Of a stretch of DNA of 64,000 bases, positions 53,804 through 55,021 are shown piece by piece (position 1 is the stretch's first letter; each line of letters begins with the position of its first letter). A program made the position numbers and the translations under genes. The notes beneath the pieces are model-generated. The model was not told the DNA's origin. It saw only the letters and a list, made by a program, of their open reading frames with translations, and made no database searches. Source of the stretch: Candidatus Methylomirabilota bacterium (GTDB lineage: Bacteria > Methylomirabilota > Methylomirabilia > Rokubacteriales > CSP1-6); assembly GCA_036265915.1 (NCBI GenBank), contig DATAOC010000059.1, positions 5 through 64,004 of the forward strand. Reading direction: 5' to 3'.

Positions 53804-55021
53804 CTAAGCTCCGGCGCGTGCGGGAACGGCCGCAGGCGCCTCGTGACCGTTGGGTGCCTCGCACGCGGCGCTCGCCCCGGCCCGATGGATGGACAGGTCT
53901 CTGATGGTCGGATTTGTCCCGCACAGCGGGCAGTTCGGGTCGCGGCGCAGGCGCACCTCGCGGAAGCGCATGCCGAGAGCATCGTAGGTCAGCAGGCGGC
54001 CGATGAGCGGCTCACCGATGCCGAGGATGAGCTTGACCGCTTCGGTGGCCTGCACCACGCCAATCATGCCTGGGAGCACGCCCAGGACGCCGGCCTCGCT
54101 TCAGGACGGCACCAGGCCGGGTGGCGGTGGCGAGGGATACAGGCATCGATAGCAGGGGCCTTGGTTCGGCGCGAACACCGTCGCCATCCCCTCGAACTGG
54201 AAGATGGATCCGTGCACGTTCGTCTTGCCGGCGAGGTAGCACGCGTCGTTCACGAGATATCGGGTCTCGAAATTGTCGGAGCCGTCCACCACGAAATCGT
54301 AGTCCTTGATGATCTCCATCACGTTGTCGACCGTGATGCGCGTGGGCAGCGCAATCACGTTCACGTCGGGATTCAGCGCCTTCAGCGCGCGGGTGCCGGA
54401 CTCGACTTTCGGTTTCCCGACATCGGCCGTCGTGTGCAGGATCTGCCGCTGCAGATTCGTGATGTCCACGACGTCGCCGTCCATGAGACCGAGCGTGCCG
54501 ACTCCTGCCGCGGCGAGATAGAGCGCGGTCGGGGATCCGAGGCCGCCGGCGCCGATCAGCAGTACCTTGCTTCGCAGCAGGCGCCGCTGACCCTTGTCGC
54601 CGACCTGCGCCAGCAGGAAGTGCCGGCTGTAGCGCTGGATCTGGTCCGCCGTCATCGGAACGTCCTTCACGACCGGCAGGCCCGACTGCGCCCACTTCTG
54701 ATAACCGCCCTGAAGATTGATGACGGTCTGGTATCCGAGCTCCTTGAGCTGCTTGGCAGCCAGAATCGAGCGCAGGCCGGTCTGGCAGTAGAGAACGATC
54801 GGCGTCGCCGGGTCACTGACCGCGGTGCCGATCCGGAACTCGAGGAACCCGCGGCTGATGTTGCTCGCCGCCTCGATGTGTCCGTCGCGGTACTCATCGG
54901 GATCGCGGACGTCGATCACGACGGGCGGAGCCTCGGATTTCAACTGCCGCGCGAGCTCGTCGGGACCCTCTTCGGGAACCACCTGCCGCGCCTCCGCCAG
55001 CATGTCTCTCAGCGTCTTCAT
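53804..55021 (-). CDS. Rhodanese-MoeB/ThiF (E1-like adenylyltransferase) fusion with an in-frame TGA at 54103-54101 (selenocysteine candidate, otherwise a nonsense pseudogene)
   Basis: The rhodanese domain has VIDVRDPDEYRDGHI and the active loop CQTGLR. The ThiF domain has LLIGAGGLGSP and CYRCLYP. The sequence [19 protein letters not shown] continues in frame through [16 protein letters not shown] and CPLCG to TAG 53804. The alternative start is ATG 55054. Confidence 0.65.
54069..54086 (-). promoter_or_regulatory. Candidate SECIS-like hairpin downstream of the in-frame UGA
   Basis: The mRNA can form CCUGGG-CGUGCU-CCCAGG, a perfect 6 bp stem beginning 14 nt after the UGA. The loop GU falls at +25/+26 counting the U of UGA as +1. 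Confidence 0.35.

Follow-up and report, generated by a model that had tools for sequence, protein, structure and literature searches.

A minus-strand gene in a 64,000-nucleotide stretch of Candidatus Methylomirabilota contig DATAOC010000059.1 (hereafter, the window) is predicted to encode a selenocysteine (Sec)-containing enzyme in which an N-terminal rhodanese domain precedes a ThiF/MoeB-type adenylation domain. The gene contains a single in-frame UGA, and comparison with homologues identifies this codon as a conserved site of true recoding, very probably for Sec. Based on its domains and the position of the UGA, the product is very probably a rhodanese-MoeB/ThiF sulfur-carrier activator that uses Sec as its crossover-loop nucleophile. 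A first-pass annotation of the window, made from the sequence alone, had proposed a Sec-containing E1 and not a dead gene; the pairing of Sec and Cys forms, the conserved TGA, selection on the downstream frame, and constraint on a hairpin just past the UGA all support that proposal. The finding is correct but not new, as MoeB selenoproteins have been known since 2005 and the N-terminal-rhodanese form is already curated (NF006444). The window gene is the N-terminal-rhodanese subtype of this known family in a Methylomirabilota/Rokubacteria-like lineage.

Reading frame and domains

Two minus-strand open reading frames (ORFs), 54101..55054 and 53804..54079, lie in a common frame, and their joined translation is interrupted solely by the TGA at 54103..54101, as the first-pass annotation had read it. 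In the alignment of full-length homologues, the proteins begin at MKTL, so the gene most likely starts at 55021 and not at the upstream ATG at 55054; with this start, the recoded position is residue 307 (Table 1).

Pfam analysis agrees with the annotated architecture, namely a rhodanese domain with a CQTGLR loop followed by an uninterrupted ThiF/MoeB domain: Rhodanese matched residues 20-112, and ThiF matched residues 131-365 in one unbroken match that spans the TGA codon. The Pfam match together with active-loop Cys79 identifies a rhodanese domain, for which a persulfide role is predicted. The ThiF fold, the GAGGLG nucleotide loop, and two zinc CxxC motifs (C290xxC293 and C364xxC367) identify the remainder as a ThiF/MoeB E1-like adenylyltransferase, and the loop and both zinc motifs are invariant in the homologue alignment.

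With Cys in place of Sec, the protein scored 532.3 bits against NCBIfam model NF006444 (PRK08762, N-terminal rhodanese), for which the cutoff is 449, with residues 5-375 aligned to positions 4-375 of the 387-position profile. Against the NCBIfam MoeZ model (NF005902), it scored 391 bits, below the cutoff of 647; with its rhodanese at the N terminus, it falls outside the MoeZ/Uba4/MOCS3 group.

Past the second CxxC, the C-terminal tail contains a conserved Cys that may be the counterpart of the MoeZ/Uba4 linker Cys (DYxxFC). Many Rokubacteria-type tails (loci L079, L085-L088, L091, L092, L097, L099, and L009) also keep a Cys ~18 residues past the second CxxC (..ACE/FCx..). Many Rokubacteria-type proteins end in ..[KR]AGG, a diglycine like those at sulfur-carrier and ubiquitin-like C-termini; the window copy ends in ..ARAGA.

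The TGA column across homologues

The TGA column aligns with C184 of ThiF (1ZUD), C187 of MoeB (1JW9), and C202 of Chaetomium Uba4 (CtUba4; 6YUB), and it lies 14 residues past the first CxxC in each. Using a query that carried Cys at the TGA position, a protein search identified full-length matches of ~400 residues with 68-84% identity, and all aligned full-length homologues (68-81% identity) that reach this column carry Cys there (..GLVPS-C-[AS]..). Among the best 120 protein clusters, ~70 are 300-320 residues long, with 86-94% identity and only 73-76% query coverage. This is the pattern expected from gene callers that stop at the TGA, and it was confirmed directly for two clusters (P0057 and P0059). 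The contigs encoding the short forms carry a 306-residue gene and an 86-87-residue "ThiF" fragment in a gene neighbourhood like that of the window. Rokubacteria metagenome-assembled genomes carry the gene too (contigs CAVWWD010000009.1 and CAWBMV010000034.1). Calls split into an "adenylyltransferase/sulfurtransferase" and a "ThiF" fragment occur in the window, L001, L002, L003, L169, and L170, which looks like systematic mis-annotation.

A scan of one genome per species identified 80 loci with the N-terminal-rhodanese architecture in many phyla, 10 with TGA and 70 with TGC/TGT at this column. The TGA loci are from Methylomirabilota/Rokubacteria (L005, L006, L007, and L079), Nitrospinota (L008), Ca. 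Entotheonella (L009), and Poribacteria (L012, L015, L016, and L017). A metagenome scan added further loci, for 167 distinct loci in total: 29, from four phyla, have TGA at the column, and 138 have a Cys codon (TGC/TGT); thus the Sec/Cys pairing by which selenoproteins are recognized is found at one column, and both comparisons proposed in the first-pass annotation (Cys at this column elsewhere, TGA in close relatives) gave the anticipated result. In a rough neighbour-joining tree (233 residues, without support values), at least five Cys/Sec switches fall inside the N-terminal-rhodanese group alone.

TGA is also the commonest ordinary stop in the window, and therefore the genetic code is not reassigned. 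We found no other gene in the window with an in-frame TGA and coding-like flanks, the two remaining matches being antisense shadows. In the flanks of the Sec loci, all in-frame TGA matches were adjacent genes sharing a frame, except in L145 (described below).

Translation past the TGA

Every one of the 29 Sec loci with sufficient sequence has a frame that stays open for 76-106 codons downstream of the TGA, and 28 of the 29 match the search pattern for the second zinc CxxC at codon +56. Among Rokubacteria-type loci, the downstream ratio of nonsynonymous to synonymous differences (pN/pS) relative to the window gene is 0.00-0.25, with pS ~0.5, and is comparable with that of the upstream part. Codons +1..+7 (SEAGVLG) are invariant at the protein level yet synonymously variable. 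Codons +2..+4, which precede any possible restart codon, show synonymous variation only (GAG/GAA, all four GCN, and all four GGN). As is characteristic of selenoprotein genes, orthologues retain both the UGA and an open frame beyond it, and the stretch past the UGA is under purifying selection. The first-pass annotation had named decay of this region in relatives as the mark of a pseudogene; the relatives instead have intact downstream frames under purifying selection.

The hairpin past the UGA

The first-pass annotation had pointed out that the mRNA can fold into CCUGGG-CGUGCU-CCCAGG starting 14 nucleotides past the UGA. We located this hairpin at 54086..54069, with the loop G and U at +25/+26 (numbering the U of UGA as +1), as described. 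It is a putative selenocysteine insertion sequence (SECIS). When the window sequence is folded, an extended hairpin is predicted with a minimum free energy (MFE) of -19.6 kcal/mol (z = -2.1 versus dinucleotide shuffles); of 200 shuffles, 5 are equally stable. Bacterial SECIS (bSECIS) elements have been defined by an upper stem of 4-16 bp, a loop of 3-9 nucleotides, a G in the first two loop positions, a UGA-to-loop distance of 16-37 nucleotides, and an MFE of ≤ -7.5 kcal/mol (PMC13188914). The window hairpin conforms to this definition in stability as well as in its 6-bp stem, its 6-nucleotide loop with G at loop position 2 and then U, and its spacing of 20 nucleotides. Because the lower stem is often broken in relatives (pairs 10-45, 12-43, and 15-39), we claim only the upper stem and loop.

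The 6-bp stem is complete in register A in 27 of the 29 Sec genes versus 4 of the 138 Cys genes, and the remaining two Sec genes (L009 and L145) keep the stem, shifted by one position. In a count over the 14 pairs of the extended hairpin in the 29 Sec sequences, 88% of cells are paired versus 33-53% in slid registers. Third-codon-position entropy in Sec genes is 0-0.43 bit at codons +5..+9 (nucleotides 18-30) and 0.83 bit at codon +10; the corresponding range for codons +5..+10 in Cys genes is 1.3-1.6 bits. At flanking codons +3, +4, +11, and +14 of the Sec genes, it is 1.5-1.8 bits. Loop positions C24 and G27, on which the protein sequence places no constraint, are fixed in TGA genes only. 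The freezing of synonymous sites, and not the presence of a hairpin, is the only discriminator that separates Sec from Cys genes.

In 59 of the 138 Cys genes (e.g., L166, L106, and L095), the sequence GUGCUSGGCGUGCUGCCSGGCAU can fold into a hairpin of 7-8 bp whose loop is GUGCU and whose register is offset by one from that of the Sec-type hairpin; the conserved peptide thus pre-encodes a SECIS-like element.

Points against Sec and alternative explanations

Several observations weigh against reading the UGA as Sec. The fold is only modestly more stable than the shuffles. Of the 138 Cys genes, 63 (46%) can also form a hairpin in one of two registers, and hairpin presence was rejected as a Sec/Cys discriminator on this account. 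Covariation scores of the hairpin equal shuffled scores; because the core pairs never vary, the covariation count is uninformative. A scan of the whole window at Rfam gathering thresholds returned no match. The loop GU is part of a Val codon, and the stem is largely dictated by the peptide GVLGVLPG; with so much of it set by this conserved peptide, the hairpin carries little weight by itself. As an argument for Sec, then, the hairpin of the first-pass annotation holds in its fit to the SECIS model and in the synonymous sites frozen in TGA genes only, and is weak where its presence is taken by itself.

A further point against Sec is that the 64-kb window yielded no selA, selB, selD, or tRNA-Sec, and neither did the flanks of related loci. 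ARAGORN identified no tRNA of any kind in the window and 12 Sec-type loci, and Pfam scans of ~50 window reading frames identified no SelA, SelB, or SelD domain. Scanning 2.05 Mb of fetched loci and the window for SelA/SelB/SelD motifs produced one SelD-like match only, in a Cys-type genome (L025); this negative is weak. No ThiS/MoaD-like ORF ending in GG lies near the gene in the window or in 12 related loci. Indirect support for Sec comes from the host lineages: in one Methylomirabilota metagenome-assembled genome, 63 selenoproteins are predicted (PMC13188914), and both Methylomirabilota and Poribacteria are reported to have Sec hydrogenases (PMC13582414). In the literature on Sec machinery specifically in Rokubacteria or Methylomirabilis, we found nothing direct.

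If a nonsense mutation had killed a MoeB-like gene and its downstream part were decaying, the public gene calls would be explained, as these divide the gene between a product of 306/317 residues and a "ThiF" fragment of 86-87 residues. However, the TGA occurs at one codon in 29 distinct sequences from four phyla and coincides exactly with the catalytic Cys codon. Each downstream frame is intact through the second zinc motif, relatives have no downstream frameshifts or stops, and downstream pN/pS remains 0.0-0.25 in close relatives at saturating synonymous divergence. The same region bears on a split enzyme, in which translation would stop at the UGA, the C-terminal 87-91 residues would be restarted at an in-frame GTG (54079) or ATG, and the pieces would assemble. 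An in-frame GTG does lie 8 codons past the UGA and is used by gene callers, but it sits in the hairpin loop and has no evident Shine-Dalgarno sequence. The SEAGVLG codons, before any restart codon, are protein-invariant with synonymous variation and so are translated; a break inside the catalytic crossover loop would remove the key residue; and the full-length Cys homologues are single chains. The open downstream frame, the low pN/pS, and the synonymous-only variation at codons +2..+4 therefore exclude a pseudogene, whose probability we consider negligible, and argue strongly against a GTG-restarted split enzyme, which we regard as highly improbable.

An error in sequencing or assembly would need to change one base only, the true codon being TGC or TGT. 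Loci L169 (JGI 3300037803) and L170 (ENA ERZ27279688), with 99.7% and 99.2% gene nucleotide identity, come from unrelated projects and carry an identical TGA and hairpin, which excludes such an error; dozens of more distant relatives also share the TGA, leaving this explanation a vanishingly small chance. Read-through independent of a SECIS, by a near-cognate or suppressor tRNA (Trp, Cys, or Gly) with a hairpin that merely slows the ribosome, would agree with the failure to find Sec machinery in the window or in the sequence of related loci, and with the similar hairpin of many Cys genes. We nevertheless consider it improbable. At a catalytic Cys site, only Sec or Cys is chemically sensible, and the fixation of C24 and G27 in TGA genes only fits sequence-specific recognition by SelB. 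The element persists in unrelated marine genomes of low GC content, Sec use is documented in the host phyla, and TGA is a normal stop elsewhere in the window.

Relation to known systems

The "Molybdopterin biosynthesis MoeB protein" was a new selenoprotein family of the Sargasso Sea study, with 11 sequences (Zhang, Fomenko & Gladyshev 2005). MoeB selenoproteins were found again in the Global Ocean Sampling analysis (2008; 19 sequences), and the family is included in reviews from 2022 and 2026, with representative MBT7809913.1. The first-pass annotation had mentioned such entries in marine surveys, and correctly so: Sargasso entries AACY01471790, AACY01443469, AACY01732851, AACY01801335, AACY01323152, and AACY01468605 read ..LVPSuAV[AS]GVLGVLPG.., with Sec at the same column as in the window gene. 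As a COG0476 homologue with predicted Sec at the family's TGA column, the window gene can be assigned to this family.

The window gene and the Sargasso genes also have in common a hairpin core and loop (GUC CUR GGC GUG CUY CCR GG) and widespread Cys homologues. In the Sargasso DNA, the core GTC CTR GGC GTG CTY CCR GG is kept amid AT-rich surrounding codons, and its retention in such genes is further evidence for a functional element. The two differ in domain order and lineage. AACY01471790, the sole entry extending past the adenylation domain (the other entries read are fragments), is from a low-GC marine organism and has a C-terminal rhodanese, as in the MoeZ/MOCS3 order, whereas the window gene has an N-terminal rhodanese and comes from a 70% GC lineage near Methylomirabilota/Rokubacteria.

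The N-terminal position of the rhodanese was stated correctly in the first-pass annotation, but the order is not unusual, as NF006444/PRK08762 proteins occur in many phyla. The match to this family is full length, and the architecture is common to 80 species genomes. Whereas 70 of the 80 sampled members have Cys at the crossover loop, the window gene has UGA. With Uba4/MOCS3 of eukaryotes and MoeZ of actinobacteria, the window enzyme shares the adenylation domain, a crossover-loop nucleophile, a rhodanese persulfide carrier, and a Cys past the second CxxC; it differs from them in its reversed domain order and in having Sec instead of Cys. It thus probably works like the MoeZ/Uba4/MOCS3 type without being a member. 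E. coli ThiF and MoeB have a homologous adenylation domain (E ~1e-56) with both zinc CxxC motifs, and their C184 and C187 occupy the Sec column; unlike the window enzyme, those two proteins have no rhodanese domain.

Like the SECIS of E. coli fdhF, the window hairpin lies within the ORF just 3' of the UGA and has a small apical loop with G and then U ~22-23 nucleotides from the UGA. The loop bases are G23/U24 in fdhF and G25/U26 in the window hairpin. Beyond the loop GU, the two have no sequence likeness, and the window hairpin lacks the bulged U on the 5' arm; binding of SelB to it would be by analogy with fdhF.

Proposed mechanism

The gene would be translated as a single 405-residue enzyme with an N-terminal rhodanese and a ThiF/MoeB-type E1-like adenylation domain, the SECIS hairpin inside the coding sequence signalling that the UGA be decoded as Sec. 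By analogy with E. coli fdhF, SelB-GTP-Sec-tRNASec would bind the hairpin and deliver Sec to the UGA in the A site. Sec307 would then lie in the E1 crossover loop in place of the cysteine that forms an acyl intermediate. In this position, the cysteine of ThiF (C184) becomes linked to ThiS in an acyl-disulfide; that of MoeB (C187) is reportedly dispensable. In Uba4, the crossover-loop Cys (C225 in yeast and C202 in Chaetomium) is the site of a thioester with adenylated Urm1, which the rhodanese persulfide then attacks (PMC6007339, PMC7527816).

For the window enzyme, the comparisons above show the signature of recoding and which structural residue the UGA replaces; that SelB is required, how the reaction runs, and what kind of carrier takes part are inferred. 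The adenylation domain would adenylate the C-terminal glycine of a ThiS/MoaD/CysO-like sulfur carrier. Sec307 may attack the adenylate to form an acyl-selenoester; alternatively, it may resolve the acyl-persulfide through a Se-S bond. Sulfur would come from a persulfide on rhodanese Cys79, and the carrier would be released as a thiocarboxylate for molybdopterin or other sulfur-insertion chemistry. Compared with Cys, Sec would be the better nucleophile and leaving group and would make the enzyme harder to over-oxidise irreversibly.

The neighbourhoods of the Cys forms are not syntenic with that of the Sec form. For this reason, and because no carrier gene lies nearby, we do not assign a pathway from gene context. 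Molybdenum-related genes in the window include a gene for a xanthine-dehydrogenase-family molybdopterin-binding subunit (17956-20589, plus strand) and a MogA/MoaB-type gene (MoCF_biosynth; ~49850-50300, plus strand). The two are compatible with a role in molybdopterin synthesis and do not prove one.

A possible origin of the Sec forms

The universally conserved peptide GVLGVLPG, 5-12 codons past the Cys codon, may encode a ready-made "pre-SECIS" when written with GC-rich codons, namely a hairpin whose apical loop has GU at a suitable distance from the Cys codon, such that a single TGY-to-TGA change would be enough to try Sec. We put this forward tentatively and consider it less likely than not. 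If true, it would explain why Sec arose at least ~5 times at one site (based on the rough tree) and in both domain orders, and why the synonymous sites of the hairpin froze into one preferred form after conversion.

Locus L145 (contig ORJL010038056.1; gene at ~L145:7558-8724) has a second in-frame TGA at 7792-7794, at the exact position of the rhodanese active-site Cys (..VPLVLY-*-GGGSRS..), in addition to the crossover-loop TGA (..FAPN-*-EEAGVLG..). The sequence is divergent, with 57% identity in the best TBLASTN segment. The double-TGA sequence had no relative above 58% identity in a protein search, and the hairpin after the first TGA is unremarkable (z +0.7). L145 could be a double-selenocysteine enzyme, an extreme of the "pre-SECIS" trend, although this is unconfirmed.

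Features and gene neighbourhood

A dTDP-sugar operon is divergent from the Sec gene (Table 1). It encodes an RmlA-like nucleotidyltransferase, an RmlC-like epimerase, and an RmlB-like dehydratase, and is followed by genes for a trypsin-PDZ protease, an HD-domain protein, and QueC. A glycolate-oxidase-like GlcD/E/F cluster (45169-49782) adjoins the MogA/MoaB-type gene. Elsewhere in the window is a dense signalling block (27903-32918, 36398-41667, and 20592-22679, all on the minus strand), which includes two large, adjacent GAF/HisKA/HATPase histidine kinases in one frame with a TAG between them, a response-regulator-HD protein, a sigma-54 activator, and a GGDEF protein.

Table 1. Coordinates of the Sec gene, its elements, and the adjoining operon in the window
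Feature	Position	Strand	Remarks
Rhodanese + ThiF/MoeB E1-like adenylyltransferase/sulfurtransferase gene	53804..55021	-	Complete; 405 codons + TAG stop; one in-frame UGA
N-terminal rhodanese domain, residues 20-112	54686..54964	-	PF00581, E 5e-20
Codon of rhodanese active-loop Cys79 (CQTGLRS)	54787..54785	-	Cys79 invariant in homologue alignment
ThiF/MoeB adenylation domain, residues 131-365	53927..54631	-	PF00899, E 4e-86; alignment to 1ZUD, 1JW9, 6YUB
Zinc CxxC motifs	C290/C293 at 54143..54154; C364/C367 at 53921..53932	-	Alignment to ThiF, MoeB, Uba4 structures
UGA predicted to be read as selenocysteine, residue 307	54101..54103	-	Replaces crossover-loop catalytic Cys
Putative bacterial SECIS core: 6-bp stem CCUGGG/CCCAGG, 6-nucleotide apical loop CGUGCU	54069..54086	-	Nucleotides +18..+35
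Extended hairpin, 14 pairs, two 3' bulges	54059..54094	-	Predicted for window sequence
C-terminal tail past second CxxC	53804..53920	-	Conserved Cys (..AACEAP..) ~18 residues on; low-complexity end ..ARAGA
dTDP-sugar operon neighbourhood	55123-57580, 57531-58607, 58462-60033; 60036-60836	+ (first three); - (last)	Kept in L001, L002, L169

Significance

Selenoprotein biology as known is unchanged by the window gene. At the level of annotation, merging the two public gene calls gives back a complete enzyme, one more entry in the selenoproteome of a Methylomirabilota/Rokubacteria-type organism. The comparison of Sec and Cys genes cleanly illustrates RNA-level selection on top of protein-coding constraint. 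The role of the crossover-loop residue (thioester or acyl-disulfide, essential or dispensable) is debated for MoeB, ThiF, and Uba4, and a natural Sec variant together with close Cys relatives (75-84% identity) is a matched pair for testing that role.

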